Source: an uncultured virus (IMG/VR IMGVR_UViG_3300021387_000062)
Lineage: Duplodnaviria; Heunggongvirae; Uroviricota; Caudoviricetes
DNA: 58,302 nucleotides
Virus record (IMG/VR): IMGVR_UViG_3300021387_000062
Reading direction: 5' to 3' (one strand)
Part shown: piece by piece, positions 15,612 to 34,618 of the stretch
Layout of the letters: each line of letters begins with the position of its first letter
Numbering within the stretch: position 1 is the first letter of the stretch
Made by a program: the position numbers and the translations under genes
Notes under the pieces: model-generated
The model's database searches: none
Told to the model about the DNA's origin: nothing
What the model saw: the letters and a program-made list of their open reading frames with translations, nothing else

Positions 15612-15614
15612 ATA

Positions 15615-15795: not shown

Positions 15796-15800
15796 AAATA

Positions 15801-16048: not shown

Positions 16049-16201
16049 TGGTGCGCCATCGCGGATTTGAACCGCGGACACCCGCATTAATGGTGCCGAA
16101 CGTGAGATTCGAACTCACAATCTTAGCTTTTTGAGAGCTATCCGTCTACCAATTGCAGCACTTCGGCAAGTGCGGTGCTCTGCCTACTGAGCTAATGGCG
16201 C
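16049..16201 (-). tRNA. split tRNA-Lys(UUU): 5' part 16168-16201 (34 nt), 3' part 16049-16090 (42 nt)
   Basis: Joined halves give a fully paired 76-nt cloverleaf with CCGCA-CTT|TTAA-TGCGG. Confidence 0.9.
16091..16167 (-). tRNA. tRNA-Leu(CAA) with short variable loop, nested inside tRNA-Lys
   Basis: GCCGAAG...TAGCT-CTCAAAA-AGCTA...GTGAG-TTCGAAT-CTCAC-GTTCGGC-A-CCA. Confidence 0.9.
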
Positions 16202-16483: not shown

Positions 16484-16490
16484 ATATTAA

Positions 16491-16618
16491 CAAGACGTAA
16501 TAAGATTTATTCACAGTTTATCAGACTGTTGCCTTACCGTTTGGCTAAATTGGAACACTCCAATTATGGGAATCGAACCCATATCCTTCTTAAAGAAGAG
16601 TTTGCTGTATACGTCTTT
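16491..16618 (-). ncRNA. ACAGCAA-family ncRNA C containing a circularly permuted cloverleaf (GAU loop)
   Basis: AAGACGTA/TACGTCTT stem; T arm, AATTGGA/TCCAATT hairpin, D arm, ACAGT-CTGATAA-ACTGT. Confidence 0.75.
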
Positions 16619-16619
16619 A

Positions 16620-16705
16620 TGGTAGCTCGGGTTGGACTCGCACCAACGATGTTTCTATGTTACGCGTTTACAGCGCGCTGCCCTCGCTACTAGGCATACC
16701 GAGCT
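16620..16705 (-). tRNA. tRNA-Tyr(GUA)
   Basis: Loop CTGTAAA, long V arm, CCA. Confidence 0.9.
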
Positions 16706-16712
16706 ATATAAA

Positions 16713-16797
16713 CAAGACACTAAATCCAGTACAAGCTATTCATGGCGCTTATCGAGGGAATTGAACCCGCGTAAAAGATTGCTGTTAGAGTGTCTTT
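16713..16797 (-). ncRNA. ACAGCAA-family ncRNA D
   Basis: AAGACACT-CTAACAGCAA...GGGTTCAATTCCC...AGTGTCTT. Confidence 0.65.
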
Positions 16798-16921
16798 ATT
16801 TTTATTTAAAATATAGGCTAGGTTTATCACACCATTTACTACAGCTCCTGCTCCTCTACACCTGAGTACTTTAATGTACAATCGGGCTTCGTAGCACCTA
16901 TTTTTATTCTTTTAATCAATA

Positions 16922-17015
16922 CGAGATACAGAAAATTTAAAGGACTTGAACCTTTTCGATAACGTTTTAGCAGAACATTTCTTTAACCATTTTATATTTT
17001 GCTGTATGTATCTCT
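16922..17015 (-). ncRNA. ACAGCAA-family ncRNA E (D-like, anticodon-like GCU and T arms; family stem replaces the acceptor stem)
   Basis: GAGATACA/TGTATCTC stem; AATGTT-CTGCTAA-AACGTT; AAAGG-TTCAAGT-CCTTT. Confidence 0.7.
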
Positions 17016-17016
17016 A

Positions 17017-17092
17017 TGGTGGACCTAGGGAGGTTCGAACTCCCAACTTCCTGCGTGCAAAGCAGACTGTCTCCCAATTGGCATATAGGCCC
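17017..17092 (-). tRNA. tRNA-Ala(UGC)
   Basis: Loop TTTGCAC, G3:U70, CCA. Confidence 0.92.
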
Positions 17093-17289
17093 AAACGTCT
17101 AGCAGTTTTTATATACATAAAATCTGCCAATCTATCAAACAGTTTGTCGTAACTCCGTTGGTACTGTTAAACCTGTCCCACAGCGTTCGTCCCTGACGAA
17201 ACCTTATGTAGCCATATAGACCGCATAAGTCTAGCCCATTAGAAGCTCATACGTCATATCCTGTTAATCAGGCTTTACGTGGGGTTGAA

Positions 17290-17366
17290 TGGCGACTACG
17301 GCGGGCATTGCTCCCGCGACCTCCTGAGTGACAGTCAGGTATTCTTCGTTGCTGAACTACGTAGCC
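17290..17366 (-). tRNA. tRNA-Asp(GUC), atypical T-loop
   Basis: Loop CTGTCAC, T-loop AGCAATG, G73. Confidence 0.88.
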
Positions 17367-17763
17367 ATATGAATCCAGGGTATTTAAACCCGCCCTGGTT
17401 TCGGTATTAAAACATTGTTGAGGTATTAGATCAGGATTACTCCAACGGCCGCCCCAACTACACGACCTCGACTGTTTCTACACTTGGCAGATCAGATAAA
17501 AATGAAGGATAGAACACTACTCCTATTTCTATAACTGTCCTTCTCAGCTATAATAAGTTATTTAGAAGCGATTACTTATACCCCGCTGGCTTTTTCGATG
17601 GGCCATAACGATTGCTTTCACAGTCGTGAACTGCCTTTCAATTTATAGTTCAGCGCAATCATCATTCTGAACTCGGTTCCCCATTTCGGTTTTGCTCCCG
17701 CCTAAGCCAAGACACTTTTAGCGTTCTTGTTGCATAATAGTTTCACCATCCCACTATTAAGGC

Positions 17764-17841
17764 TGGCGGCCCAAGAAGGACTCGAACCTTCGCTGACATA
17801 GATTAACAGTCTATCGTTCTAACCAACTGGACTATTGGGCC
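17764..17841 (-). tRNA. tRNA-Asn(GUU)
   Basis: Loop CTGTTAA, G73, CCA. Confidence 0.92.
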
Positions 17842-17847
17842 AAAACA

Positions 17848-18005
17848 CAAGACAGCTAATTCCTTTTGATTACCTAGCTTTCGCCTTAGTGGTGGCTTAC
17901 AAATTAGAATCACTATAAAATAAGCGTTTTCTCATGGCAGTGGATTATTATTCCACTCTTGTTATATTTTCATTCAAGAAAATATTTTGCAGTTCAGCTG
18001 TCTTT
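17848..18005 (-). ncRNA. ACAGCAA-family ncRNA F (variant ACTGCAA)
   Basis: AAGACAGCT/AGCTGTCTT terminal stem just after a promoter. Confidence 0.6.
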
Positions 18006-18065
18006 CTTAACTTTATGTATATATTATATCATTAAATTACACTTTTTTCAAGTTTTTAATCTTAA

Positions 18066-18216
18066 TGGTACTCTAGGTTGGATTCGAACCAACGATCACC
18101 GGATTATTGGCCGAGATAGAGAGTACCGCCCTCTCTTTCAGTGATACTAGACCACCTGCGAAACTATCCGCACCTATCCCGAAGTCCGGCGCTCAAACCA
18201 ACTGAGCTGCTAGAGT
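18066..18216 (-). tRNA. split tRNA-Ile(UAU): 5' part 18182-18216, 3' part 18066-18107 (42 nt)
   Basis: Joined halves: ACTCTAG...CCGGA-CTT|ATAA-TCCGG...GTTGG-TTCGAAT-CCAAC-CTAGAGT-A-CCA. Confidence 0.88.
18108..18181 (-). tRNA. degenerate tRNA-like unit nested inside tRNA-Ile
   Basis: 7-bp acceptor CGGGATA/TATCTCG + G + CCA; D arm TGCG/CGCA; T arm GAGAG-7nt-CTCTC; non-canonical loops. Confidence 0.8.
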
Positions 18217-18223
18217 ATATAAA

Positions 18224-19095
18224 TGGCGGGCATGCAGTCATGATTCAGTCTGCACCAAGCAATCATTCAATCACGCGCATCTTATCGGGGTCGCACAGAT
18301 GTTATTGTACATCTACTCGCGCTTCATAACGTAGACGTTCGGGAGTTCTCTCTCCTCGTGTCCCCTTCCTAAGCATTATTTTCTTCACGGCTTTTTATAC
18401 TTGCCTACAGCCATTTTACATTGGATTCTTCTCATTTCAACTTGGACCTGTGAGAACTTTAGAGATCGGCCAGGGCCAACTCCCCTACTGTTAAACAAAC
18501 CACCTATCCTTTATGGACACTTAATAGAGTGTTGTTGCTTCTATTAAGCCGCTTACGCTTGTTTTACTATACATAATCCAGTTTACTCGATCAAGCCATA
18601 TTTCCCCTATTAGGCGGATTTATTTTTGGCTCATCCCATAAGTCTTTATCATGACCTCAACCTATGGCGACTGACGAAGGGACAGGCTACCACTGCCCGA
18701 GCTGGATTTTTTCTTTCTAATTTAAAGTGAAACTATATAATAGAATCTTTACTTATATTCCTCTTTAATCCCTCGGAAAGGTCAATTTCATCCGCACGAG
18801 AGGTTCGTTTAATGCGTTCGTACATCGATCATTTCTATTATATACCCTAATTCCTCCGCAGAGAAGACCTGGGCGCAAGTCTCGCTAGCTAACTTGGAGG
18901 TTTTACCATCTTTATCGTAGATTATACCTGCCTTGAACGATACGAACATAGCTCATCTTTAGTTTTCACTTTGAAACTACTGAGGTATATGCTATACCAT
19001 TTGAAAAGTCAACTCTATGTTTTGATACCGAGAACCATTAGCGTTTCGACTCGGAGAAAAAAGAGAGATACTTAATGCATCTTTTCTCTCTCACT
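18224..19095 (-). ncRNA. large (about 870 nt) putative structured ncRNA, GOLLD/ROOL-class candidate
   Basis: No long ORF, many hairpins, starts at a strong promoter, ends beside the tRNA cluster; family not confirmed. Confidence 0.5.
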
Positions 19096-19141
19096 TTCTA
19101 TATATATTATACTATAAAATTATGTGAAAATCAAATTTTTT

Positions 19142-19345
19142 TTATTTAAATGTCTCTTTTAAGTCGTCTTCATTCATACAGACTATAGTTTCGTAAAGTT
19201 CAATTCCAATAACACTATCAGAACCATATAAATTTACTATACAATCCGCGGCCCAACCGTAAGAAAGCGCCGCAACTATACCAGAATCAGTTACTGGTTT
19301 GTCCAAATCATTATCAAAATAATTAATTGTGTACTTAAACAACAT
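19142..19345 (-). CDS. hypothetical protein
   Basis: ORF in operon (start uncertain). Confidence 0.5.
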   Translation of the reverse strand: MLFKYTINYFDNDLDKPVTDSGIVAALSYGWAADCIVNLYGSDSVIGIELYETIVCMNEDDLKETFK

Positions 19346-19355
19346 CGGTGCTTTT

Positions 19356-20662: not shown

Positions 20663-21205
20663 TCAAATATTAAGTTTCTTTCGTATATCACTTTCAATCT
20701 GATCTATACTTACAGGATATCCATTATGTGCATCTACTTCAATATGATAAATAAGCCCATTATCCCAATGAAGGAATGGATCTTTAGTATGCGAATGGCC
20801 GCAAAGACTTATGACCTTATGACGGTCTTGATAATTTTCTGTAATCTGTGGATAATGTGAAAGTAGATACGTCCAACCATTATAATGTAGGCGGCCGCCG
20901 TAATCAACAGATACAAAGATACCACTATCTTGGTATTTTTGTATGCGTGAAATACTATCATGATTGCCAACAATAATATATTTAAATCCATTGAGTCGCC
21001 GCAGACATTTCAGTCCAAATTCATCATTATTCAGCATACAATCACCAAGAATATAGACTGTATCTTCCCATGTTACAACACTATTAAATTTCTGAATTAG
21101 ATCTTCTGCTTCTTCGTATATATTGCTATATCCACGTGGGCCATAAATAAACTCACGATCATGTCCAAATTGTTAGTGAAAATCTGAAGTAAACCAGATT
21201 CCCAT
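20663..21205 (-). CDS. calcineurin-like metallophosphoesterase with in-frame TAA at codon 11
   Basis: TSDFH*QFGH...LGD...GNHD...SHYP...GHSH. Confidence 0.7.
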
Positions 21206-21211
21206 TATACA

Positions 21212-22141
21212 TCACCTCTTTTTAGGCATAGTAATTGCCTATATTATATCCATACCGTTTTCAATACGTTTATATACTGACTATCTACTAATATTAAAAT
21301 AACGGCACCATTCTGTTACTGTTTTTCGTTCACCATTAATTAATGGATGAGTTTTATTATATGTCTATTTTAGTTCATCTATATCATAATTATTATTAAT
21401 AATATTACCTTGAAAATCTATTTCACGCCAAATATACCCGTTAACATTAGTATAACGACTATCACCTTTAATACATTTTCCAATTGATTGTCGCGAAATA
21501 TTTAATAAATTACTTGCTTCTAAAATAGAATTAAAATATATTTCTTCTTTTTCATCATCTAAGGGAATACCAACTATATATTTAGAACTTTTATATCTTT
21601 TAAACGGTTTAGAAATAATACAATTATTTTCATCAATATCACGAAAATACATATCATTACACGAAGATCTAAATCCTTTACATACCCCTCTTATATCACT
21701 AGCACGCCCGTCAAGATTATTTTTTCGTGCAGCATCATTATATGACGTATATATTTCAATAATATTTTCATTTAAATCAACTTTCGCACACTTTTGTGAT
21801 ATTTTTTCTAATACCATTGCTTTTAATTTTTCATCTAGTAAAGAACAATGAGTATTAAGTGTTTGATTATATCCATTATTTAAAGAATCATATTGAATAA
21901 TCATCTATTTTTCATATTCTTCCATATCATATGCATTATTAAATAATGAAGATAATATTTCAAATTTAAAATTATCAATACCATATTTTCTAAAAGCACG
22001 CTATAATGGATAATTATAACTTGGCGCATTCGGATTCTAAGCAGCATTAATATGCTCTTCCCATCTTTTAATGTAACGAATACTAGAACCAATATATGCT
22101 TTATTATTTATCTAATTAGTAATTTTATATACAACAAACAT
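21212..22141 (-). CDS. GIY-YIG homing endonuclease with NUMOD-like repeats (TAG = Gln)
   Basis: MFVVYKITN*INNKAYIGSS...GYNQT; FNSILEAS...GYIWR. Confidence 0.85.
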
Positions 22142-22230
22142 AAATATCCCTCCTATCGTTATTAATAAGTGGTAAATTTATATCTGATGTACATTTTTTT
22201 AATTAAAATGAAAATCAGATGTAAAATATA

Positions 22231-22737
22231 TCATGAATTATCCACCTTCATAATTGCTGTATATTTATACGGATCACGATAAGGATCACTTAAAGCTTTA
22301 AACATCTTCCTAAGTGCATCTTCTGGTACACAAGCGCGCCCGCTACGTTCTTCGTTACGTGCTACTATAGTTTCATAATCACTGTATACCACAACTGGAA
22401 TAATATTAATTTCCTCTTCTTTCCAACGAAAGCCCATATAATACTTAATAGCATTAAGAAGTTTCTTCCGAGAACCCCAACTCAAATGAGTTGCATCCGC
22501 GACAATATTATATACTCCTTCTTCATAAAAACCGCGTACAATTTTACTAATAAACAAATCAAATACTTCATCTTCTCTACTAAAATAATCGTCTTCATCT
22601 TTTAAGAGAGAAAAACGTACTTCATCTCGTGAAACATAATACCACCCCGGCCCATTACATAATTTATGTTTTGCAAACCAAGTTTTCCCCGAGCCGGGTG
22701 CTCCACACATAATCCAAAGAGTTTTGTTATCCATCAA
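22231..22737 (-). CDS. P-loop polynucleotide-kinase-like (AAA_33) protein
   Basis: GAPGSGKT, SRDEVR, DATH, RNEER. Confidence 0.8.
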   Translation of the reverse strand: MMDNKTLWIMCGAPGSGKTWFAKHKLCNGPGWYYVSRDEVRFSLLKDEDDYFSREDEVFDLFISKIVRGFYEEGVYNIVADATHLSWGSRKKLLNAIKYYMGFRWKEEEINIIPVVVYSDYETIVARNEERSGRACVPEDALRKMFKALSDPYRDPYKYTAIMKVDNS

Positions 22738-22909
22738 ATCTTAAATCCTTTCCTTGACATTCAAAACAAGCTTCACTATATGCAACATCACAATAACCAC
22801 ATTCAAAAGGGCAAAATGGCTCTTTTTCTTCATTAGGAATTGATTTAAGCCATTTATTAAATTCTTCATATGTCATAACTTCTATCAATAATCCTTTCAA
22901 GTTCTCCCT

Positions 22910-23230
22910 TCAATCAACGCATGAAAGTACATAATTGTGAGGCATATAAGACTTTTGATTAGGAAAGAAAGATTTATATTCATCAATCATCTTCATCAAC
23001 TCTCCATGAGGATAAGGCGTCACAGGTCGTACCATGAAATATTCACTAGGATCTGCGTGCCAAATTATAAGACCAAAGAAATAAGTAGAGTTATCAGGGT
23101 CCCACCCATCAATCGCAAACGCATAATCAGATTCCTGAAACCGTTTGAATTTCTCTTCTGGAAATTCACGATATTCCTGACGCTGAACAATGAAGCCATA
23201 ACCCAACCTGGAACTATAATGAACAGACAT
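22910..23230 (-). CDS. hypothetical protein
   Basis: ORF behind promoter and RBS. Confidence 0.6.
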   Translation of the reverse strand: MSVHYSSRLGYGFIVQRQEYREFPEEKFKRFQESDYAFAIDGWDPDNSTYFFGLIIWHADPSEYFMVRPVTPYPHGELMKMIDEYKSFFPNQKSYMPHNYVLSCVD

Positions 23231-23370
23231 CAATTAATACTCCCTTTCTTTATTTTCTATATATATTATAATATAAAAATAGAGAAAAGTCAAATTACTT
23301 TTCTCTATCCTTATATACAATTGCCATTAAAACTATTCCGATCCAAAAGCAATCACAGAATATCTAATAA

Positions 23371-24624
23371 TTACCCATGATATTTCAGCAGAAAGCTATT
23401 GCTAACAGCTTTGAAAGATCGAGTTCCATCAACGCTTCTCAGCACAAGGCCTTCACGAGGCAGATCATCAATCATCGACTTGCCTTCTGCAAGAGTAAGA
23501 ATCTTATCCAGACGAGTCTCTCCATTCAGCTGATCAAGCTGATTAAAAGAGAATGAAGATTCAACTACTGGTACGCAAGGAACATTAAATCCATTTTCCA
23601 GAAGATTCTTCATCGCATTACTATTCCATCTGCCTTTATCAGAAGTAATAAGATTAAATGCGGCAAAGTCATGCCCAGTAAGACTATAATCTCTTTTCTG
23701 CACACCAGCGCCATAAGTTTCCCCTTGAATAGTAACCCAATTAGCGTTAGGCATCCGTTCAAGAAGCTCATTCAACACTTTAAACATGTCATACTTCTGC
23801 GCCATTTCCCAATAAATATTGGTGTCATAGTAACAAGGTTTATCAACGCTATCAAAGCATACATTACGAGAGCATACATAAAACTCATTTTTACGGCGGC
23901 CGCGCTTCATAGTGAAAGTGGTAGAACTACCATCAATTTTTTCAGTGATAATCCATTCCCCTTCATCTTCCAGAATCCAAGGCATATTCTGAACACGCTC
24001 TTCATCGGTCTTTACGACCCACTCAGGCCAGCCATTCTTTTTGTCTTTCTTCTTGCCGAAGAATACAAACATGAGTTTACGGCCCCACTCGCGCTTCATC
24101 AGCCAGCGCGCCCAAGACTTCTTAAAGATATTAGGATGCCGCTGAGCCATTTTCTTATACTTATCCACAGAAGGAGCCTTGCGCTGATTATCCTCTGCGT
24201 CTGCATAGGTTACACCAAGCTCTTTGGTAAGAAAACGAGACTCACCATTAGCATAATGACACTCTCCCTTATTGTCCTTAATATAAGGAATATTTCCAGA
24301 AGAATCATTAGTATCATATCCAATACTCCATCCGAAATCTTCTGCGTGCATAAGAAGACCCTGAGAAATTACCTTACACATACGAAGTGTTTTTACCTTA
24401 TAGTTTCGCTTTGCAAGAAACGCAAAACATTCCTTATCATACGAAACCTGGGAGTCAATCTCAAAATAAATCGCAGGATCGCCAACGTTAAACTGGCCCT
24501 TCTGAACAATCACCCACCAGCCACCAACACGGGCATGCTCAACACGATCATAATTAGGAATAGGACGAATTTCATCAATAGTCACTACATAACAGAGTTC
24601 CCTCTGATTTTCCTTATTAAGCAT
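23371..24624 (-). CDS. ATP-dependent RNA ligase (DRB0094/Rnl-like)
   Basis: KTDEERVQN, EKIDGSS (motif I), QGETYG, EGLV, FKAVS. Confidence 0.88.
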   Translation of the reverse strand: MLNKENQRELCYVVTIDEIRPIPNYDRVEHARVGGWWVIVQKGQFNVGDPAIYFEIDSQVSYDKECFAFLAKRNYKVKTLRMCKVISQGLLMHAEDFGWSIGYDTNDSSGNIPYIKDNKGECHYANGESRFLTKELGVTYADAEDNQRKAPSVDKYKKMAQRHPNIFKKSWARWLMKREWGRKLMFVFFGKKKDKKNGWPEWVVKTDEERVQNMPWILEDEGEWIITEKIDGSSTTFTMKRGRRKNEFYVCSRNVCFDSVDKPCYYDTNIYWEMAQKYDMFKVLNELLERMPNANWVTIQGETYGAGVQKRDYSLTGHDFAAFNLITSDKGRWNSNAMKNLLENGFNVPCVPVVESSFSFNQLDQLNGETRLDKILTLAEGKSMIDDLPREGLVLRSVDGTRSFKAVSNSFLLKYHG

Positions 24625-24673
24625 TTACTATTCTCCTTTCTTATTTTCTATATCTATTATACTATAAAATTAC

Positions 24674-25444
24674 TTATTTATCAAATTTTTCAATGGACTT
24701 CCACATCACTTGCATTACAATTTGTTCTACTTTATACTGCGTCCATTTATCTTCTTTATTATTCATAGAGATAAAACTATCATTATGATTACGACATTTT
24801 TGAATACAATTATATGCAATCATTTCTAAAGTTTCTTTTGAAAATTCATTATTTTTAATTGCAAGTAAAAAATCTCGGTTATCTGTAACAAGGCATTCTT
24901 CAAAACTTTTATCTTTACGATATTTATCCATGCATTCTTCAATGCGCGCAAGTTGATAAACCCATTTACTAAAATGGTTTTCTTCGCTACGATTTACAGT
25001 AAGTTTATAATTGCGATCAGCCATACCAAGGAGCGCACGCATCGTATTATTAGGATTACAACGTGCAATATCTTCGCGCATACGCATTAGAATATGGATT
25101 TCTTCTCCATAATATCCAGTATTTAAATCTCCCCAATTAGAAAAAAGAGTTTCAAGAAACTGAGGATTTCCTTTAACAAGACTTTTCATATAATTACGAA
25201 TATCACAGCAATCAATATGCTCCTCATTAGGGAGAAGATGAGTATATGCTTCACATTTATTTTCAACAATATTGCGAAGAGTAGGGATAAAAATGGCTTT
25301 AGTATCTATATCACTATATTCATCAGCACAATTATAATTCCAACTACCAACTGGTACAAGCATAAATTGCTGAAAAGGTTGAAATGTCATATTATAAAAA
25401 AGATAATGTTCTCTAATATTTGGATACATTTTATTTACTGACAT
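24674..25444 (-). CDS. Pol-beta-like nucleotidyltransferase
   Basis: GSWNY...SDIDTK; GNPQFLETL. Confidence 0.75.
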   Translation of the reverse strand: MSVNKMYPNIREHYLFYNMTFQPFQQFMLVPVGSWNYNCADEYSDIDTKAIFIPTLRNIVENKCEAYTHLLPNEEHIDCCDIRNYMKSLVKGNPQFLETLFSNWGDLNTGYYGEEIHILMRMREDIARCNPNNTMRALLGMADRNYKLTVNRSEENHFSKWVYQLARIEECMDKYRKDKSFEECLVTDNRDFLLAIKNNEFSKETLEMIAYNCIQKCRNHNDSFISMNNKEDKWTQYKVEQIVMQVMWKSIEKFDK

Positions 25445-25997
25445 TTCTTTTCTCCTTTCTTTCTGTTGCTTTATCAATCGTAGAACGGTGCAATGGTATA
25501 ACCTCTTTGAGCCGGCCGCTCTTTATAAACTGATTAAAGTTTACAGGCATATAATGAATTACATCACTACATACACAAAGATGGCCAGAGCGATCAAAGG
25601 TACTTATATGAGTGTGCCCATGAATATTAAAAGCCCAACTAATAGCTAGCGGTTCATGAGACAAAATAATACGTTCTCCAATCATGAGCGGGCCGCCATA
25701 TACTTCTTCAAATACGTCTTCATAATTAGAAAGACCGCTATCATGATTTCCTTTAATAAGAATCTTATGTCCTCTAAGTCTTCGCGCGCACTCAATATCT
25801 CCAACATCTCCAAGAAGAATTAGATGATCCTTGCGGCCGACCTTAGAGTTAATTAGTTTGATTTGTTCTTCGGCAGAAGGGCGGTTTGGAAATGGCACAC
25901 GAAGATCTTTATCTTCATTAAAATGGGTGTCACTGTAAAGCCAAACCGTACCCTCTCTATGCCAATGTTCAAAACATTTATAAAGTCCTTCAATCAT
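25431..25997 (-). CDS. calcineurin-like metallophosphoesterase
   Basis: SDTHF, LGDVG, GNHD, SHEP, HGHTH. Confidence 0.85.
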   Translation of the reverse strand: MIEGLYKCFEHWHREGTVWLYSDTHFNEDKDLRVPFPNRPSAEEQIKLINSKVGRKDHLILLGDVGDIECARRLRGHKILIKGNHDSGLSNYEDVFEEVYGGPLMIGERIILSHEPLAISWAFNIHGHTHISTFDRSGHLCVCSDVIHYMPVNFNQFIKSGRLKEVIPLHRSTIDKATERKEKRNVSK

Positions 25998-26366
25998 TTA
26001 CTTTCTCCTATACCACTTAGCCCAATACTGTTCCATATCTTCTCTTGTTTCATAATCATCCCAAGTATGCCACCATTTATCTCCATATTCCCAATATCGC
26101 CAATGTGGATGCTCCCATTCATGAATTGCTTCTGCTTTAGTCCAACGACTAATATAGTCATGTATATCATAAGAGCAAAAAAATTTCTTGTATGACATAC
26201 CGTCAAGAGTTAGAATGTCTCTATATCTAGAATCACGAGTTAAATATCCAAGAGTTATCCGTTTATTGCAGCGGCGCACACAACGATTAGCAATTTGTTT
26301 TGTTTCCTTTGTAGTGCGGCGATGGCCATCGGTACAATATGGATTCTTTTTATATGAACGAGACAC
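25998..26366 (-). CDS. hypothetical protein
   Basis: RBS AAGGAGG, GTG start. Confidence 0.65.
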   Translation of the reverse strand: MSRSYKKNPYCTDGHRRTTKETKQIANRCVRRCNKRITLGYLTRDSRYRDILTLDGMSYKKFFCSYDIHDYISRWTKAEAIHEWEHPHWRYWEYGDKWWHTWDDYETREDMEQYWAKWYRRK

Positions 26367-26806
26367 ACCGCAGCCTCCTTAAAATTTAATTTATTTTTTA
26401 TCCTCTTGTTTCAACCAATCAAGCCAGCACTTTTTACATCCATTATCTTTACACTCTACTTTATTGTCAAAAATATGCACACACGTAGATAGATAAAGTC
26501 TTTGTGCCAGTTCCTCATCCGTCATCACTCTGATGCGGTCTGCGTTGGTGATAGGCTTGGCCTTAAACAATGAGCAAATAATTTCTTCCGGGCTAGCCCG
26601 ATGACAAATGACCAACCGCTCACAATTATGACAGTTCGCCATCATTTATCCCTCCGTTATAAGACAAATAGCCACGGCAATGATAATAGCAAAAAGAAAA
26701 CCCAGCGCCCAAGTAATTAGTGCTGTTTTAACACCGTAGGCCACACAACTTGCTCCAATTAAAAGCGCATACGCAAGAATGAGAATGATGATTCCAATAA
26801 TCCTCT

Positions 26807-27115
26807 TCATGCGCTGACCTCCGCACTTGCTGGAATAACAGTAGGTGCGTCTTTTACTCCTGATAGCATTGCCCTAATATAAATTTTCTCATTTCTTAAG
26901 AAGCCGTGTTCATGTGTTAAGTACCACTCATTAAGATGATCATACAGCTCGTCAAGATCGCCAAGCCGCCCATGCGGCTCAGGGACGGGGATAACGGTTC
27001 CAAGTGGTTTCGGATTCCCGTATCCAGAAAATTGAAAAACCCGACCATCCGCAAAGATCATAATATTTTTCATATCGTCTGTCGGCATCTCCATGCCTTC
27101 AATTAAGATACTCAT
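26807..27115 (-). CDS. hypothetical phage protein (PHGRLxD type)
   Basis: MSILIEGMEMP...PHGRLGD...APTVIPA. Confidence 0.6.
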   Translation of the reverse strand: MSILIEGMEMPTDDMKNIMIFADGRVFQFSGYGNPKPLGTVIPVPEPHGRLGDLDELYDHLNEWYLTHEHGFLRNEKIYIRAMLSGVKDAPTVIPASAEVSA

Positions 27116-27319
27116 ACTCATTCCTCCTTCGGCTCTCTGAGCTTTCTTCCGCATATCGGGCAGAAGTTGATTGGTACATCCTTGTGCCACCCGCAAGCTT
27201 TTAAAGCTAGTGAATAGCCACCTACCCCAAAGAAGATAAACGCATGCCCGTTCTTCTCAATTGGCATCACGAACCCGTCCCTATCTTCATGGCAGTATGT
27301 ACAGTTCATGTTTCCTCCT

Positions 27320-27514
27320 TTAATCAATTACACTCTCACAAACTGGACAATAAAATGTGCCATAATACGGATGTCCCATAAAATAGTCTTCTTCTTGCCA
27401 ATCGCACTTGTAGATCGGCTCACCACACTCGGGACACTCAAAGAACTCTTCATCCCAGTCAACATGACCACCATAATTTACTTCAATCAGATGCGCCATT
27501 TTCTCCCAAGCCAT
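27320..27514 (-). CDS. Zn-ribbon hypothetical protein
   Basis: CPECG...CPVC; promoter and RBS. Confidence 0.65.
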   Translation of the reverse strand: MAWEKMAHLIEVNYGGHVDWDEEFFECPECGEPIYKCDWQEEDYFMGHPYYGTFYCPVCESVID

Positions 27515-27596
27515 TTTATTGTCCCCTTTCTTATTTTCTATATATATTATACCAAAAAATTTTTAAAAAGTCAAATATAAAATAAAAAGAGAACGC

Positions 27597-28322
27597 TTAA
27601 GCGTTCTCTCTATTGCGTTCTCTCTGAAGTCGTGTCCAACGAATAACACCAACAATTGCCATAATCAGATAAATACTCTTCTTCGTTAGATATACTGCAT
27701 CAAAATGCATAATATACATAGCAACAGCAATTACGTCTTGTACAATCCACAGCCAGTACTGCTCTCTATATCTTAGCATCTCAAGACCAGTTGCAATAAT
27801 ACCAATCGACACAGTAAATGCATCAAGCCAAGGAACCGTACCACCAACTCGTACAAGAATTGCATGATACACACAAGCGGCCACAATTACAATCGCGCCG
27901 GCGCCAACATCTTGAAGCCAAGTAAGCTTCTTTGCCATAGTCTTCTCAGACTCAACTTGATCTCGATGCTTCGCCCAAATAATCCAACCAACAATATTAA
28001 AAGGAAGATAAATCAGTAGTTCAAGACAAAATGTACCATAGATCTTATGATACCACAAAAATACCATATATACAAACGTATTTACAAGACCAAAAGCAAA
28101 ATTACTAATATTTGCACTTGCACAGAAAAAGATACAAAATACGCCACAAATTGCACTTACAAAATTAATTACAGTCAGCCAAGGTGGATTACTACCGCCA
28201 CCAGACCCACCAGTAAAAGCACTAACCATTGCCCAACCAGCAATAGCAATCATTATAATTGCCATTAGCCATTCATACCACTTCATCTGTTTAAAAGATT
28301 TCTTGAGATTTTCAATATTCAT
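27597..28322 (-). CDS. pnuC: PnuC-family nicotinamide riboside transporter
   Basis: Multiple TM helices, PWLDAFT, REQYWLWIVQD. Confidence 0.85.
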   Translation of the reverse strand: MNIENLKKSFKQMKWYEWLMAIIMIAIAGWAMVSAFTGGSGGGSNPPWLTVINFVSAICGVFCIFFCASANISNFAFGLVNTFVYMVFLWYHKIYGTFCLELLIYLPFNIVGWIIWAKHRDQVESEKTMAKKLTWLQDVGAGAIVIVAACVYHAILVRVGGTVPWLDAFTVSIGIIATGLEMLRYREQYWLWIVQDVIAVAMYIMHFDAVYLTKKSIYLIMAIVGVIRWTRLQRERNRENA

Positions 28323-28324
28323 AA

Positions 28325-28822
28325 TCACACCATCCATTTCTTTCTTTCTTCTTTAGTCATATTTCTTACCATAGTGGCACTAATATTAAGTTCTTTTCTT
28401 TCTGGATCAAGACACCGATAAACAGCATCAGGATAAGCTCGCTTGAAGTAAGGTGCATAACTTGGTTCACTCCCATATACTGCGTCCAAATGTCCACAAC
28501 GTGCAAGCACAAGAGGGGTTTCAGCATCCCAATCTTCTGAGCCATCAGCAAGCTTACAATTGCTTACGTCAATAACTTCTACAAGTACATTATCATATAG
28601 GGCGGCCGCGCGACAGCATTGAGTAAGACGATTCTCAATATCTAAATCTTCATCACCTGACATATCACGAGCGATTTGCTCTTCTTGGTCGCCGCCGATA
28701 AACATTATAAGATATACTAATTCACATTCACACGCGGCCGTGTCAAGACATTTTAGATGCCCCTTATGCATTGGCATAAACTTGCCACCATACATTCCAA
28801 CTTTATATTTCTTTTCACTCAT
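28325..28822 (-). CDS. NadR-like NMN adenylyltransferase (cytidylyltransferase family)
   Basis: GGKFMPMHKGH, SEPSY, NISATMVR; adjacent to pnuC. Confidence 0.8.
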   Translation of the reverse strand: MSEKKYKVGMYGGKFMPMHKGHLKCLDTAACECELVYLIMFIGGDQEEQIARDMSGDEDLDIENRLTQCCRAAALYDNVLVEVIDVSNCKLADGSEDWDAETPLVLARCGHLDAVYGSEPSYAPYFKRAYPDAVYRCLDPERKELNISATMVRNMTKEERKKWMV

Positions 28823-29358
28823 TCAATTACATCCTTTATATCACTTGGGAACTCGCCATAAATCATTCCTTTATGTCTAAAATGATTATGAATATTTTCA
28901 ACCCAAGAAATACTTTTCCACATAGACCGTCGGTGAGTACCCACATATTCAAAAGATAGCGGTGCTTCAAAAAGCATAAATAACTTTATCATCTGTTCTT
29001 TTGGAATCACTCTACTTCTTTTTTTATTGTTCTCTAAGCAAAGTTTTGGAAGAGCATCTACCCAAATTAAATGATGCTCAAAACCAGAAAACCAATTAAG
29101 AAACTCTGCTCTATCACAATATGTGGGTGCATTAGTATCAACAACTACGTCTTGCCCAGCTATTTCTGCTGCATGAATCTGTCGGAAGAAAGTCATCCAT
29201 ACATCAAATTTATTATCATGAGAAGTGGGATCACCATTAAAAGTAGCATACATATCATCAATAGAAAGATACCTAAATCCATTCTTTCGCGCAAGTTCAC
29301 GTGCATATGTAGACTTGCCACTACCAGGATGACCGCACATCAAAAACATTTTTGCCAT
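28819..29358 (-). CDS. P-loop (AAA_33) kinase
   Basis: GHPGSGKST, SIDD, VVDTN. Confidence 0.8.
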   Translation of the reverse strand: MAKMFLMCGHPGSGKSTYARELARKNGFRYLSIDDMYATFNGDPTSHDNKFDVWMTFFRQIHAAEIAGQDVVVDTNAPTYCDRAEFLNWFSGFEHHLIWVDALPKLCLENNKKRSRVIPKEQMIKLFMLFEAPLSFEYVGTHRRSMWKSISWVENIHNHFRHKGMIYGEFPSDIKDVIE

Positions 29359-29670
29359 TTAGATTTCCCTCCATCCATTATGTTTAATAATACGACACAT
29401 ATTTTCAATTCCAACTGAATTTTGACTATGAATATGAAAGAAATACCCAGTATCAACAATGCCTTCACGCTCAAGCCAATTCAGAATCTCAATATGGTCG
29501 CCACCGTCTTTAGCGTAATCACCAGCATCATGATCGAGATCAATTATAATAGTATCATCTCGCATATTACTTTCATAAGTACGAATTGCTGATTTAGCTC
29601 CATTAACAGTCCGACACCAGAGCCAACTCGTATCGGGCGGCCGACGTGTGTCATCAATCCAGAGCTTCAT
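29359..29670 (-). CDS. cyclic-phosphate-processing receiver-domain-like protein
   Basis: MKLWIDDTRRPP...DLDHD...IHSQNSVG. Confidence 0.7.
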   Translation of the reverse strand: MKLWIDDTRRPPDTSWLWCRTVNGAKSAIRTYESNMRDDTIIIDLDHDAGDYAKDGGDHIEILNWLEREGIVDTGYFFHIHSQNSVGIENMCRIIKHNGWREI

Positions 29671-29892
29671 TTTTATTCTCCCTTCTCTCATTTTCTGTAT
29701 ATATTATAACATAAAAATCTAAAAAAGTCAAAATAAAAAGAAGAACTATACCCTTCAATAGTTCTTCTTCTGAATGGTGCATAGTACAACCTATGCTTAC
29801 AGAGTTCTTCCCTGGAGTTCCCATGCTTTTTAACCGTTCGATACATGGTGGTGGACCTCGGAGTTCAGAAGCCATCATTAATTACTTAAAAA

Positions 29893-29999
29893 CAAGGCAC
29901 TAAATAAAAAGGATTTTCACGGATTAACCGTAATTATAATAACAAGTTATAATTTTATCTATAAAATCATTAAATCAATAAATTGCTGTATGTGCCTTT
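29893..29999 (-). ncRNA. ACAGCAA-family ncRNA G
   Basis: AAGGCAC-ATACAGCAA...GTGCCTT. Confidence 0.65.
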
Positions 30000-30125
30000 A
30001 ATTATATATAAATATCCTACTTTCCCCTCGGTGCGCTACTATTAACGCATTTCCCCGGTGTCTAGAACGGTGAGAACATTACATCTCGTTTCCTCCCCTC
30101 GAGGTCGGCTTTCACTTGGATATTT

Positions 30126-30530
30126 TTACCAACTATCAATATCTGTTATATCTTCTGACTGGCCACAGATGGGGCAAGTTATCTTTATACAAGTACCTAA
30201 ACCAGTACCAGTAAGCTCATAAATATATGTATTACCAGCACTTTTACTATTCAGTGGTAGCGCGCATTTTTCGTAGTGTCTACTCCGAAAATCACGTTCC
30301 GCTTTTGCTTCTTTATCAGACATAAGCAATAAACTGCGAGAATAAAGCTCGTCAACTTTATCTTTATATTTTTGAATCTCTGAGTCTTTATTATATTCTT
30401 CTAACTTTTTCTTATAATATTCAACTTGACCTTCTAATACTTCATATGTATCTCTAAGATTCTTACAGATAGTATCTATATCTTTTACTTCAACAAGTTT
30501 CCCATCTTTATTTGATGCAAAGTAACTCAT
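30126..30530 (-). CDS. hypothetical protein
   Basis: RBS GGAG before MSYFAS; TGLG...CPICG. Confidence 0.65.
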   Translation of the reverse strand: MSYFASNKDGKLVEVKDIDTICKNLRDTYEVLEGQVEYYKKKLEEYNKDSEIQKYKDKVDELYSRSLLLMSDKEAKAERDFRSRHYEKCALPLNSKSAGNTYIYELTGTGLGTCIKITCPICGQSEDITDIDSW

Positions 30531-30672
30531 AATTATCTCCAAAATTATATTAAGGGTAGCGTATATCCTCATAGCTATTTCCGCCGCCGTTACCTTTTAG
30601 TCAGTAACAGTGAAATAGTTCCCCATAATGAGTCTTATTTATAAGAAAGGAGGTACTAAAAATGAACAGTAG

Positions 30673-30746
30673 TGGTTGCGGTCGGATGATTCGAACATCG
30701 TCTTAAGTTTATGAGACTTATGAGCTACCATTGCTCCACCACCGCA
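30673..30746 (-). tRNA. tRNA with CAU anticodon (Met type)
   Basis: TAAGT-CTCATAA-ACTTA; CCA. Confidence 0.82.
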
Positions 30747-30918
30747 ATATATAGAGTAGTTTAAGCTCTTACTCAGGAGCTATAATAGCCAATTGGGCTA
30801 TCCTTACTAGAAGGTTTCATATGCTTGTTTTTCATAATCTGTTATCCTCCTATTTTAATTTTTAGTGGTTTAAAGTTCCACCAGAACTACCAAGATATTT
30901 ATCGTCGCTTGGACGACC

Positions 30919-30995
30919 TGGGCGGAGGTTGGATTTGAACCAACGATTTCCTATTTGACGCCATAGGCGAGGACAACCAAACTCCTCTACTCCGT
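30919..30995 (-). tRNA. tRNA-like gene of undetermined identity (8-nt loop GGCGTCAA), possibly pseudo
   Basis: Good D and T arms; irregular anticodon loop and acceptor end. Confidence 0.55.
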
Positions 30996-31072
30996 TGGTG
31001 ATCCCCGCGGGATTCGAACCCAGCATTACAGCCTTGAAAGGGCTGTGACCTGACCTGTTAGTCGAGGAGACC
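30996..31072 (-). tRNA. tRNA-Glu(UUC)
   Basis: Loop CTTTCAA, CCA. Confidence 0.92.
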
Positions 31073-31075
31073 ATA

Positions 31076-31690
31076 AGCTGATTGATTTATATACCGCGCT
31101 CCCAGCTCTCGCGGTAGAATACAAGCCCTAATTTCTATACCGTTTGCTTGCTGGTCACTAAAACGGTCGGTATGCGATACTTTTCCACGGCTCCCATCTC
31201 TCTCATAGCCGAAATTACGCTAGCCATTTGGTACTGTTGTATCTGACTTCAATCGTCAGGCTGGGGACATCCAGCAAGTATCTATGTAGTTGAGCAGTAG
31301 ATAGAATCTCTTCTACCATACCTAGGAGCTTTCGCAAGTAAATTTCTATCTCACTTTTACCTGACACGGGCCGCCGCGAGAAGGCACTCCATTTGTGACC
31401 CGCATATGGTGTCCCATGAATGACGCTCAACTCATTCATTATACCCTTTTGAGACAATCTCCAGGCGCCGGCGAACGTTTTTCCGGACTTATGGGACGAT
31501 TTAAATTTTACTCACATTTACCATTCCATATGCCCTTATGTTCTGGTGATTGGGAATTAGTGACTATTACCCAATTCTTCGCTCCTCCACGGGCGAGCTG
31601 TCCGGCGCTCTCATTAACGTAGTTGCTCACGTTTTGGATGTACAGTTCCTCACGACTTCTCTGCACAGAAGTCGATGGCGCTATAATGGT
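31076..31690 (-). ncRNA. large (about 600 nt) putative structured ncRNA, ROOL-like candidate
   Basis: No credible ORF, many hairpins, directly upstream of tRNA-Glu; size and context fit ROOL, unverified. Confidence 0.5.
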
Positions 31691-31879
31691 AATAGATTAA
31701 GTCTATTAATCTTCTTCTTGATAAGCACCGCCATATACCCAACGGCACCAATCATCATATTCATCGGGAATAATCTCTTCAACTTGCTGCATTGTATCAA
31801 AATCATCAAACATTTTATTTATCCCCTTTCTTTATCTTACATATATATTATATACTAAATTTTGAAAAAAATCAAATTT

Positions 31880-32347
31880 TTACTTTACGCCGTTCAAAAA
31901 AGAAATTGCTTCATTCACGTCTTCATCAGTGAGACCAATACCACCATTTATTTGAATAAGATGATCTCTATATATACTCATATCATACCAATCATCTAGA
32001 ATTACAAAAGACTCTATATCTAAATCTTTATGTAATTCAAACCATTCATTAATAGCAGCACCACGACTCGGCCGCATAGGCATTGGAAGAGCATCCCAAA
32101 TTTCCATACCATATTCTTTAAGTTTATCTCTAAGTTGGTTAAAGAATGGTTCATTCTTAGACTCGTCTTCTCTATTCCAACCATCCCGCCATGTAGAACT
32201 TAATACGATCTTGGCGCCCGTGGCATCAATTATTCGTTTCAGACGTTCAACTAGATAATCATCAACAAAGCACCATCCATCAAATGTTATGGTACGTGTC
32301 AAATTATTATTTAGTACACCGTCAACGTCAAGAAATAGTAACTTCAT
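31880..32347 (-). CDS. HAD phosphatase (RNA-repair-associated type)
   Basis: FLDVDGVLN, LSSTWR, VILDD. Confidence 0.8.
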   Translation of the reverse strand: MKLLFLDVDGVLNNNLTRTITFDGWCFVDDYLVERLKRIIDATGAKIVLSSTWRDGWNREDESKNEPFFNQLRDKLKEYGMEIWDALPMPMRPSRGAAINEWFELHKDLDIESFVILDDWYDMSIYRDHLIQINGGIGLTDEDVNEAISFLNGVK

Positions 32348-32691
32348 TTCTTATATTCCTTTACTTTCTCATTCCATCTATTAATTGCCTTTTGCATAGC
32401 TTTTTCATCACTATACATACTAGTCATAACAATTGGATAAAAGAAAGGACAACCAAGATTAGCACAGCTTACAACACAGAGATGCATAAATCCACTACGT
32501 TCAAACTTAACAGTGGGTAACTGATTACATCTCGGGCATAATTCTACTGATGGCATCCTATTCTCCCTTCTTAAACTTTGACCTATCGTAAGATCCTTTA
32601 CCTTTTTTATTTTTGAGATAATATCCCTTTTTTCTAAACTCTAAAAACTGCTGAAGCTCTTCTCCAGTTTTCTTAAAGACTTGCTTATCCA

Positions 32692-33000
32692 TTACAAATT
32701 CAACTCCTTAAAATTAATAATCTTCGCAAGTTCATTAGCTCTTTGATTCAATTTATTTAAGAAATCTTTATTGGGTTCTTTCCAAACAGCAGATACATAT
32801 TTATGGCCTTTCCCATAAAGAGAAGCCCCATTCTGCCTACAATATCTTAACCATTGCGGCCAGCTTAACCCACTAATTCTACAAGCCAAAAGATTAAAAC
32901 TACCCGTAATAGGTTTACCTTCTGTCCAAAATTCATCCCAAACTGGGCAAATAGTCCACCCATTATTACTGGATTCTCTATATACAAAGTAAGACTTCAT
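32692..33000 (-). CDS. hypothetical protein
   Basis: ORF in operon. Confidence 0.6.
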   Translation of the reverse strand: MKSYFVYRESSNNGWTICPVWDEFWTEGKPITGSFNLLACRISGLSWPQWLRYCRQNGASLYGKGHKYVSAVWKEPNKDFLNKLNQRANELAKIINFKELNL

Positions 33001-33278
33001 ATAAGCATTTCCTTCCACAGTTGTTTAATCTCTTTCTCTTCTTCTGGCGTCAAACAAGTAATATCATACCAAGACGGCAATTTTTCTGCTATCTCTTCAA
33101 TAGGTGGCAGTTCAATATCTACCGCTTCAACTTTCTGCTCACTTTTATAATCAGAAATTACATACTTCCTTACAGTGGAAGCAGACCAACCAGTTACCGC
33201 GGCCGCTCCACTGTAAGTCCCACAAGCTAGATATGCTTCATTAATTTTTATAATATCGTCAGGTCCAACCCGCTTCAT
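32997..33278 (-). CDS. HTH-containing protein
   Basis: TYSGAAAVTGWSASTVRKYV. Confidence 0.6.
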   Translation of the reverse strand: MKRVGPDDIIKINEAYLACGTYSGAAAVTGWSASTVRKYVISDYKSEQKVEAVDIELPPIEEIAEKLPSWYDITCLTPEEEKEIKQLWKEMLI

Positions 33279-33407
33279 TCTACATCATTCCAATCTTCAG
33301 CATTGGTATATTTCTGAACTCGCTGATTTTTACGCTCTTTATCTCTCTGCTTCTTGGAGTCTTCTTCATCTCGCCAGTCATCTTCCCAATCATCATAAGA
33401 ACGATTT

Positions 33408-33623
33408 TTATCTCGCTTCGCCATCTTTAAGCTCCTTCATAAGATTTGAATAAATTTCATGATACATTTTATCAATCAGATCTTGGTCTTCGATATAGAA
33501 TAAAGTAGTTTCATTACGGCCAACCGCGTTTAGAAGTAGCTGGCCAAGACGAATATCTGGAGTCAATTCCCAAATTCTCTTTAAATCATTTAAAATCTGC
33601 GGAATACGATTCACGTCTCTCAT
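33408..33623 (-). CDS. conserved hypothetical protein (MRDxNRI...PDxRLGQL)
   Basis: Motif; promoter and RBS. Confidence 0.65.
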   Translation of the reverse strand: MRDVNRIPQILNDLKRIWELTPDIRLGQLLLNAVGRNETTLFYIEDQDLIDKMYHEIYSNLMKELKDGEAR

Positions 33624-33670
33624 ATCTTTCCCCTATCTCATTTTCTGTATATATTATACTATAAAATTAT

Positions 33671-34498
33671 TTAATTGTCAAAATTAGGACTCTTTATGAT
33701 CCACCAATCGAGATTTCCAGTCGCATCATATCTGCGCCATCTATCATAGATAACTTCAAGTTCTTCAATATCATGATAATACATTTCAACGTGCGGTCGC
33801 TCCGCTCTATCAGCATGGTAGTGACCAAATAACCAAACATACCATTCACACTGATCTTTTAATTCATCCAGCCAAAGTTCCATAGAATTATCAACAGTAG
33901 ACTGATCTACTAGTGGCAAAAACATATCAACCGGCCGCCATGAATATGGGCAAGTATGAGACATAATAAAATCTATTTTCTTTCCAGAAAAAAGTCTTGA
34001 AGCATCTTCCATTTCTTTACTACTAAGTTGTTCATTATAAAACCAACCAGTTTTCTTGGCATTGGTATAATCTGGATCAAGTTTATCTTGAATTTCAAAA
34101 CAACCTAATCTATACCATTTATCAACGGAATAAGCCCCACCAATTACACCAACAGTATATCCATCAATATTATAAATTCCATAATCTTTAAAGTAACGAA
34201 TATGTGGGTATTCATTTTGAAGATATACATATCCATTTACTTCTGGATCAAAAACTTCGAGCATTCCAAGTAAATCTTGCGGCCGAGCTTCATGATTACC
34301 ACGCACACAATAAATAGTATAACCGCGTTCATTAACTTCTTTTTTCTTTCGTTCATCCGACTTATTTAAATAAAAGTTAAATCCAGCGTCTCCAAGAATT
34401 ATAATTGCTGTATCTTTTGGATCATAATTGTCGAGACAACCATTACACATCCAATTAAAATTACCGTGAGTATCTCCTCGCACCAAGTAATTCTTCAA
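33671..34498 (-). CDS. metallophosphoesterase
   Basis: GDTHG, LGDAG, GNHE, SHTCP, FGHYH. Confidence 0.85.
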   Translation of the reverse strand: MKNYLVRGDTHGNFNWMCNGCLDNYDPKDTAIIILGDAGFNFYLNKSDERKKKEVNERGYTIYCVRGNHEARPQDLLGMLEVFDPEVNGYVYLQNEYPHIRYFKDYGIYNIDGYTVGVIGGAYSVDKWYRLGCFEIQDKLDPDYTNAKKTGWFYNEQLSSKEMEDASRLFSGKKIDFIMSHTCPYSWRPVDMFLPLVDQSTVDNSMELWLDELKDQCEWYVWLFGHYHADRAERPHVEMYYHDIEELEVIYDRWRRYDATGNLDWWIIKSPNFDN

Positions 34499-34618
34499 AG
34501 TTAATCTCTCCTTCCCTTTTTGATAAAATATATAATACTTCATCCCAAGTACAATATATTACCTTTCCATTCTCCCATACTCTATATAGATCTAAATCTT
34601 TAAAATACTGTACAGTTG

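Follow-up and report, generated by a model that had tools for sequence, protein, structure and literature searches.

A 74-nucleotide tRNA-shaped insert, a candidate intron, in the tRNA-Ile(UAU) gene of an uncultured phage

The interrupted tRNA-Ile(UAU) gene and its insert

The stretch of DNA analyzed here (58,302 nucleotides (nt) of the uncultured virus IMGVR_UViG_3300021387_000062 from IMG/VR; hereafter the window) comes from a large phage genome and has all its tRNA genes on the minus strand. One of these, a gene for tRNA-Ile(UAU) at 18216..18066 (−), carries 74 additional nt (18181..18108) between U34 and A35. The 5' exon (18182..18216, −; 35 nt) comprises the 5' strand of the acceptor stem, the D arm, the 5' strand of the anticodon stem and the loop bases C32, U33 and U34, and the 3' exon (18066..18107, −; 42 nt) starts with A35, U36, A37 and A38 and continues through the 3' strand of the anticodon stem, the variable loop, the T arm and the 3' strand of the acceptor stem to A73, the encoded CCA being located at 18068..18066 (−). 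A preliminary description of the locus, made by a model from the letters of the sequence, had given the end of the 5' part as CCGGA-CTT and the start of the 42-nt 3' part as ATAA-TCCGG, and both its coordinates and its wording are correct. All four stems of the outer tRNA are paired. The Rfam tRNA model (RF00005) matches 18069-18216 (−) over its full length (model positions 1-71, 50.8 bits, E 1.9e-10; gathering score 29) and leaves a 77-nt unaligned block in the anticodon loop, and the intron mode of ARAGORN reports the span 18066-18216, including an intron of 74 nt. No other tRNA-Ile was called in the 58-kb window.

Removal of the insert generates a 7-nt anticodon loop with the anticodon UAU, exactly as it is present in two uninterrupted orthologues from related phages, L044 and L094. 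L044 holds the same tRNA-Ile without the insert behind an upstream flank that is 87% identical to that of the window, and its BLAST alignment joins query positions 219 and 294, i.e., precisely 18181..18108 is absent. L094, found on the L035 contig, whose ligase is 87% identical, shares both upstream flank and acceptor stem with the window gene. Because these orthologues join exactly at CTT/ATAA, and a shift of the insert by one base in either direction breaks the match, the boundaries are fixed independently of any fold. A blastn search of positions 17950-18300 against GenBank phages gave no match, and no viral contig contained an exact match to either a 32-mer or a gapped junction pattern (0 in each scan).

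The insert (18108..18181, −), a candidate intron, extends from a C as its base 1 to a CCA end. Its termini form an acceptor-like stem in which the 5' strand CGGGATA (18175..18181, −) makes 7/7 pairs with the 3' strand TATCTCG (18112..18118, −). The latter strand is directly abutted by a T-like arm (18119..18135, −) with 5/5 pairs between GAGAG and CTCTC and a non-canonical 7-nt loop, GGCGGTA, and the discriminator G with the CCA (18108..18111, −) is immediately followed by A35 of the outer tRNA. At minimum free energy, the insert folds into a cloverleaf of four arms whose GCCA tail is unpaired, and in which one recovers the 7-bp acceptor stem, the G+CCA and the D, anticodon and T stems with an aberrant T-loop that had been read from the letters beforehand. 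For a random insert, the chance of a 7-bp terminal stem together with a CCA can be estimated arithmetically as (6/16)^7 x 1/64, or about 2e-5. As a tRNA in its own right the insert is not recognized: Searched alone against Rfam it gives no tRNA match at E <= 10, ARAGORN makes no call on it even with lowered thresholds, and it has neither a UAU loop nor an Ile anticodon. Elsewhere in the window, at 14008-14080 (−), lies a CCA-ended tRNA-like gene that Rfam scores at 43.9 bits and ARAGORN does not call, with CCTGGGA as its anticodon loop and GGCAGGA as its T-loop; GGCRGNA-like loops are common to this gene, the window insert and a mini-insert of a tRNA-Leu gene in L001 that is described below.

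Inserts and exons among related phages

For comparison, 80 related loci were collected via the neighboring RNA ligase gene. Alleles of the tRNA-Ile gene were gathered with a 24-mer from the 3' exon (the stretch 18066..18107) and a 21-mer from the 5' exon, which yielded 3 and 5 matches in viral contigs and 10 in metagenome contigs. L086, L092 and L093 were dropped, as they have the T-arm 24-mer in common with the gene and are other tRNAs, and L001 and L003 were added, resulting in 15 tRNA-Ile(UAU) alleles on distinct contigs. With this number of alleles in the group, the earlier remark that a UAU product is itself unusual does not apply here; it is also well known that phages, e.g., T4, carry tRNA-Ile(UAU). 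Nine of the 15 alleles are interrupted (window, L029, L095, L084, L088, L090, L087, L091 and L003) and six are not (L044, L083, L085, L094, L096 and L001).

The window insert is similar to the insert type of L084 (z 5.5) and to that of L087 (z 4.6), the other seven inserts giving z values of 0.2-2.3. L084, L088 and L090 carry an 83-nt insert at 34/35 that agrees with the window in 17 of 18 end-stem and tail positions, the single difference being a G-U pair in the window where the L084 type has A-U; L087 has a 75-nt insert at 34/35 whose end stem differs. Taken by itself, the L084 insert does score as a tRNA (37.2 bits, Rfam), and the homologous window insert is thus a degenerate member of its family. 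L003 contributes an 82-nt unit that shares 84% identity with the L084 interior along 57 nt. Its position is 36/37 in another tRNA-Ile(UAU) gene (11224-11358 of L003), which is uninterrupted in L001. Across the six members (window, L084, L088, L090, L003 and L087), every one of the 72 acceptor- and T-stem cells is paired, and 6 of the 12 pairs (3/7 in the acceptor-like stem, 3/5 in the T-like stem) show compensatory changes, a count reached by none of 500 shuffles; slid registers of the alignment pair to only 33-49%. The tail is GCCA in four of the six (window, L084, L088 and L087), ACCA in L003 and GCTA in L090, so that NCCA is found in 5/6. The loops and the D and anticodon regions align poorly, and window and L084 have 55 matches over 74 and 83 nt. 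As judged from this alignment, the acceptor and T stems of the insert are under selection. The covariation among relatives that the preliminary description had proposed as a check is therefore there, and its claim that the shape recognized by tRNA end-processing enzymes was kept while decoding was lost agrees with stems that covary, a window copy that no longer scores as a tRNA and a homologue that does. When ten of the inserts were searched with blastn against all collected loci, only nested copies and the L003 unit were retrieved, and no free-standing donor.

The exons tell a complementary story. Eight of the nine interrupted alleles keep all testable pairs of the outer stems, the anticodon stem alone being checkable in L003, where the contig ends. 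When 11 alleles are aligned, pairing holds in 229 of the 231 cells of the outer stems, with covariation at 10 of 21 pairs. Of the seven interrupted alleles in this alignment, L091 alone has an unpaired cell, and its outer gene is damaged (a C-A mismatch and ACTA instead of ACCA). The exons of the window and of the L084 type are identical at 65 of 73 positions, and the eight differences constitute four compensatory pairs with none in unpaired columns; toward L029 the window exons show 12 differences, which are six compensatory pairs. The exon anticodon-loop bases are invariant. Since the exon differences are compensatory only while the insert interiors are far more diverged, the comparison argues that the interrupted alleles still yield a working tRNA. 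Demand for such a tRNA can be read from 24 open reading frames (ORFs) of the window: ATA accounts for 159 of 614 Ile codons, so that a tRNA-Ile(UAU) is needed, and AAA accounts for 364 of 525 Lys codons.

Interrupted tRNA genes are not confined to tRNA-Ile. In the 80 loci and the window, our strict scanner called 44 tRNAs as uninterrupted and 8 (7 distinct) as interrupted, ARAGORN in normal mode called 126 tRNAs, and on the whole records of five relatives the Rfam tRNA model gave 79 matches, two of them with a long span. Altogether, 11 distinct insert types were found. Seven of these (window-Ile, window-Lys, L029, L066, the L084 type, L087 and L003) restore a 7-nt loop, end in NCCA and pair 6-7 of 7 end-stem positions. 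An eighth, a 49-nt mini-helix at 32/33 of the tRNA-Leu(UAA) gene of L001 (16708-16843) and L044 (17434-17569), likewise restores the 7-nt loop and ends in NCCA. A register scan of 10 types (without L003) detected an end stem of 6-7/7 pairs with an abutting 5-bp stem and a 7-nt loop in nine. Among the eight CCA-ended types, the base preceding the insert is U in seven. The sister case in the window is a tRNA-Lys(UUU) gene (16049..16201, −), called in intron mode by ARAGORN, into which a CCA-ended tRNA of 77 nt (16091-16167, −) is inserted at 34/35; this inner tRNA is called by both ARAGORN and Rfam, has the anticodon CAA and, unlike bacterial tRNA-Leu, a short variable loop. Uninterrupted tRNA-Lys genes occur in L001, L010 and L029 and on a deep DNA contig of run X1; as the latter skips 16091-16167 in DNA, it says only that the uninterrupted gene exists as DNA in that sample. 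L066 holds a tRNA-Thr(UGU) gene (303-492) with a 117-nt tRNA-like insert, and imperfect cases are a tRNA-Asn-like gene in L021 (1403-1546) and a tRNA-Pro-like gene in L074 (3243-3376). Three further intron-mode calls of ARAGORN (L074:35-235, L010:4808-4964 and L017:82-225) were rejected as adjacent genes or other RNAs rather than nested tRNAs. The preliminary description had pointed to two dissimilar inserts at one position: The Lys case is real and has empty sites in relatives, but the position 34/35 is not fixed, as inserts are also found at 32/33, 35/36 and 36/37 (the last, for example, in L029). On the evidence of these comparisons, tRNA-shaped inserts are general in this phage group, with exceptions.

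The array of tRNA genes contains further tRNA-like elements. Permuted units, in which the 3' half comes first and leads through a small loop to the 5' half, with a long stem closing the whole, were located on the minus strand at 13882-13993, ~16550-16617, ~16740-16796 and ~16950-17020. They are preceded by a repeated leader motif (3 exact pattern matches against 0.03 expected), and one of them gives a sub-threshold match to the Rfam family YrlA (Y RNA-like; 35.4 bits) with a fold z of -2.9. The ~1.1 kb upstream of tRNA-Ile (18217-19355) has no ORF of at least 80 aa and no Rfam match, and it is well covered in contigs from RNA libraries (depth 35-124 over 18284-19000 in X17); other gaps of 200-400 nt in the array, e.g., 17367-17763, also appear structured.

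A possible route of excision and its alternatives

The insert is real, non-accidental and mechanistically suggestive. We put at roughly one in two the probability that the 74 nt at 18181..18108 (−) are an intron that is cut out at its tRNA-like ends and whose exons are subsequently ligated. In such a route, the precursor would fold as a tRNA within a tRNA. Host RNase P would read the 12-bp stack of acceptor and T stem and the GCCA tail of the insert, and its cut before insert base 1 would leave U34 with a 3'-OH. A 3'-end endonuclease would then cut directly behind the CCA of the insert, leaving A35 with a 5'-phosphate, and the exon halves would be kept together by the outer acceptor and anticodon stems until the phage RNA ligase seals them to a 7-nt anticodon loop that reads AUA. 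Both cuts, the enzymes performing them and the ligation are steps that we infer. As for the first cut, an acceptor/T-arm helix is a minimal substrate of RNase P, and the bacterial enzyme prefers U before the cleavage site. The second cut has precedent in some RNase Z/BN enzymes, which cleave after CCA, whereas CCA acts as an inhibitor of many RNase Z enzymes from bacteria.

The candidate for joining the exons is an ATP-dependent RNA ligase (23371..24624, −) with a Pfam PF09414 domain and an N-terminal PHA02142 OB domain, whose closest solved structure is the RNA ligase of Naegleria gruberi (E 1.5e-34; Rnl5-type). It represents the only type of phage RNA ligase found, one that joins a 3'-OH to a 5'-phosphate, the ends left by RNase P and RNase Z-type cuts, and needs no prior healing. 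The gene lies in an RNA-repair neighborhood (20663..34543, −), assigned with Pfam and PHROGs, within the 16 kb upstream of tRNA-Ile. The same strand encodes phosphoesterases (20663-21037, 25431-25997 and 33671-34543), P-loop kinases of the polynucleotide-kinase type (22231-22737 and 28819-29358), an RlaP nucleotidyltransferase (24674-25477), a cREC_REC protein (29359-29691) and a HAD_SAK_2 protein (31880-32347). A Ro-like RNA-binding gene (DUF2828/DUF7788, phrog_850; 11656-13194) is located downstream of the tRNA array. The repair genes match the RNA-repair set described for jumbo phages (PMC7824862). Among them, at 27597-28822 (−), there are also a PnuC-like nicotinamide mononucleotide (NMN) transporter gene and a cytidylyltransferase-like (NMN adenylyltransferase-type) gene.

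The inserts furthermore behave as movable DNA, a mobility known as a pattern only: Close relatives differ in whether they have them, and one family of units occupies 34/35 and 36/37 in two tRNA-Ile genes. They carry neither a target-site duplication nor an ORF. The tRNA array is flanked by free-standing GIY-YIG endonuclease genes (8986-9618 and 21212-22141), putative drivers that could bring about allele exchange, as SegB does in T4. An origin of the inserts by phage-encoded retro-transposition is weakened by profile searches for missing genes, which were run on the records of the five relatives, three of them complete, and in which RVT_1 was found in 0/5. That the inserts form a movable family of tRNA-shaped introns which hops between sites and genes, is excised by RNase P and a post-CCA endonuclease and leaves exons for the phage RNA-repair ligase to rejoin is a more demanding proposal, to which we give somewhat less than even odds.

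Several observations weigh against excision and ligation. The weakest link is the cut after CCA: A post-CCA cutter is required, and the RNase Z-type domain Lactamase_B_2 was found in none of the five relatives. The ligase is present once in each of them, but this co-occurrence is circular, as the relatives were fetched through the ligase gene, and its nearest solved relative is the nick sealer Rnl5 and not the anticodon-loop specialist Rnl1; a T4 Rnl1-type ligase was seen in 0/5, but as the control of that search matched nowhere either, this zero carries no weight. No contig from three RNA-library runs and one DNA run over 13500-19000 joins 18107 to 18182, and one RNA-library contig (X17, 18133-18287) crosses the 5' junction unspliced, which may reflect DNA or precursor. 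The fold energies are ordinary (insert, z -1.33; precursor, z -1.71), so that the case rests on architecture and comparison rather than on thermodynamics. Some inserts depart from the pattern: Three of the 11 types violate it outright, those of L021 and L091 ending in CCC (GCCC in L091) and that of L074 lacking a CCA; in addition, the mini-helix of L001/L044 pairs only 5/7 end-stem positions, and the insert of L090 has CTA at its tail. Finally, the conservation of the exons could predate a recent horizontal gain of inserts into already diverged alleles.

Alternatively, selfish, tRNA-shaped mobile DNA may have killed the tRNA-Ile gene, with no splicing at all and with exons that survive only since the insertion is recent. 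This is the most probable of the alternatives, although we consider it unlikely. It would account for the RNA-library contigs without an exon junction, for close relatives that differ in the presence of the insert (L094 agrees in acceptor stem and upstream flank but lacks it), for related units at different sites of different genes, and for L091, which has decayed in both the insert end and the outer gene with its C-A mismatch and ACTA. However, the strong divergence of the interiors indicates that the insert lineage is old, and yet all testable outer pairs persist in eight of nine interrupted alleles, whose exon differences are compensatory only. The window insert, with no Ile anticodon and no tRNA score, is not a replacement for the outer tRNA either. 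A dead gene would moreover leave the window with no called tRNA-Ile despite its frequent ATA codons, and selfish DNA has no evident reason for exact tRNA ends that restore a 7-nt loop in eight types.

A less probable alternative retains splicing and assigns the cuts to another phage or host nuclease, such as an anticodon-loop nuclease or some uncharacterized protein of the phage, with a kinase and a phosphoesterase healing the ends before ligation. The selection on the acceptor stem, T stem and NCCA and the boundaries at the ends of a mature tRNA would then go unexplained, and an archaeal-type splicing endonuclease (PF01974) and RtcB were each found in 0/5 relatives, with positive archaeal controls. 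What speaks for such a nuclease is the set of two polynucleotide-kinase-like kinases, phosphoesterases, RlaP, cREC and HAD_SAK_2, which 3'-OH and 5'-phosphate ends do not need, together with the spread of inserts over 32/33, 34/35, 35/36 and 36/37 and the existence of deviant inserts without CCA; healing genes of this kind are, however, ordinarily explained as tRNA repair against host nucleases (PMC7824862). Quite improbable, finally, is a device that releases a tRNA-like RNA and two never-joined tRNA halves, e.g., as nuclease decoys or Ro-like partners, for although the same array holds tRNA mimics (the Y-RNA-like permuted units and the odd tRNA-like gene) and adjoins the Ro-like RNA-binding gene, neither halves nor decoys need invariant exon anticodon-loop bases and an exact 7-nt loop, and the window insert is the most degenerate of its family.

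Relation to known systems and meaning

To our knowledge, self-splicing group I introns are the only interruptions generally accepted for the tRNA genes of bacteria and their phages. Like the insert, group I introns (e.g., that of cyanobacterial tRNA-Leu(UAA)) reside in the anticodon loop of bacterial-type tRNAs and are patchily distributed among relatives. The insert itself was rejected as a group I intron: Its 74 nt are too short for a catalytic core, such introns measuring ~200 nt or more, and RF00028 gives no match at the site at E <= 10, while the same model detects a real group I intron at 38481-38698 (−; 66.7 bits) in this window. That intron is followed by an ORF for a LAGLIDADG endonuclease (37662-38486, −), adjoined by a PhoH-like gene fragment (37104-37625); homing endonucleases are part of the context of this phage. 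Two other RNA motifs were found, a sub-threshold match to the CPEB3 (hepatitis delta virus (HDV)-like) ribozyme at 31324-31414 (−; 29.9 bits, gathering score 35, E 2.6e-4) and a DUF3800-VIII RNA motif at 58163-58227 (+; 45.7 bits, above the gathering score). The phage also uses TAG as a sense codon in many late genes, including structural and lysis genes: The ORF 35250-37061 is open only with read-through of 16 TAG codons, the ORF 53543-56182 contains 10 in-frame TAG codons, and a suppressor tRNA(CUA) at 8022-8096 (−) indicates the recoding.

Archaeal and eukaryal bulge-helix-bulge introns, ligated by RtcB or Trl1, follow a similar logic of protein-dependent cutting and ligation and occupy several loop positions. 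The insert was also rejected as one of these, as inspection of the precursor fold by eye places its junctions on either side of a 7-bp helix with single strands of 3 nt and 8 nt instead of the 3-4-3 arrangement. A definition of RNA ends by RNase P and RNase Z, as in the route proposed here, is known from the permuted tRNA genes of Cyanidioschyzon merolae, from tRNA punctuation and from engineered tRNA-guide RNA arrays. In those systems the tRNA shape releases its neighbors or its own ends, whereas here it would be discarded and the remainder ligated. The T4 tRNA-Lys, in turn, is resealed by Pnkp and Rnl1 after cleavage by PrrC (PMC7824862). There, too, a phage ligase repairs a break in the anticodon loop, but the break is damage, while here it would be built into the gene; and the T4 ligase is Rnl1, that of the window Rnl5-like.

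Closest to the present case are the "enigmatic" introns in tRNA genes of Lak megaphages (Devoto et al. 2019, PMC6784885), of which the one in tRNA-Thr(TGT) "itself may encode a tRNA"; that article was the only report on phage tRNA introns resembling tRNAs found in a literature search that did not cover subscription journals. The introns in its Table S6 mostly measure 79-141 nt, with two shorter ones of 23 and 52 nt, and the window insert lies just under the range of most of them. Both are non-group-I interruptions of the anticodon loop of a phage tRNA gene, the insert being tRNA-like here and in one Lak intron, in both the presence varies between related genomes, and the true boundary of the Lak introns is likewise offset from the software call (PMC6784885). 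The report is descriptive, its main text containing no mechanism, ligase, RNase P, RtcB or RNA repair (PMC6784885), and one printed Lak intron has extra bases 5' of the tRNA-like part, so the builds may differ. The phage group is probably a different one, too, with relatives' contigs of 62-240 kb against ~540 kb for Lak (PMC6784885), and the inserts are compared here by description. What is added here are boundaries that coincide with tRNA ends to the base, covariation within an insert family, exon change that is compensatory only, moves between loop positions, and neighboring repair genes with an RNA ligase.

The present case is a variant of these known Lak-type introns, which since 2019 have stayed unexplained. 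The locus provides a precise rule for them, namely that the insert extends from base 1 of a tRNA-like unit to its CCA and leaves a 7-nt loop, and the comparative evidence suggests that both the shape of the insert and the split tRNA are under selection. If excision at the tRNA-like ends and ligation hold true, tRNA splicing would have a third route in addition to the self-splicing of group I introns and the endonuclease-dependent removal of bulge-helix-bulge introns, and one that exists only thanks to phage RNA-repair genes. Phage RNA ligases would then serve routine tRNA maturation and not damage repair alone, the persistence of a non-catalytic, ORF-less insert in a gene of essential type would be explained, and nature would offer a cut-and-ligate cassette for RNA engineering.

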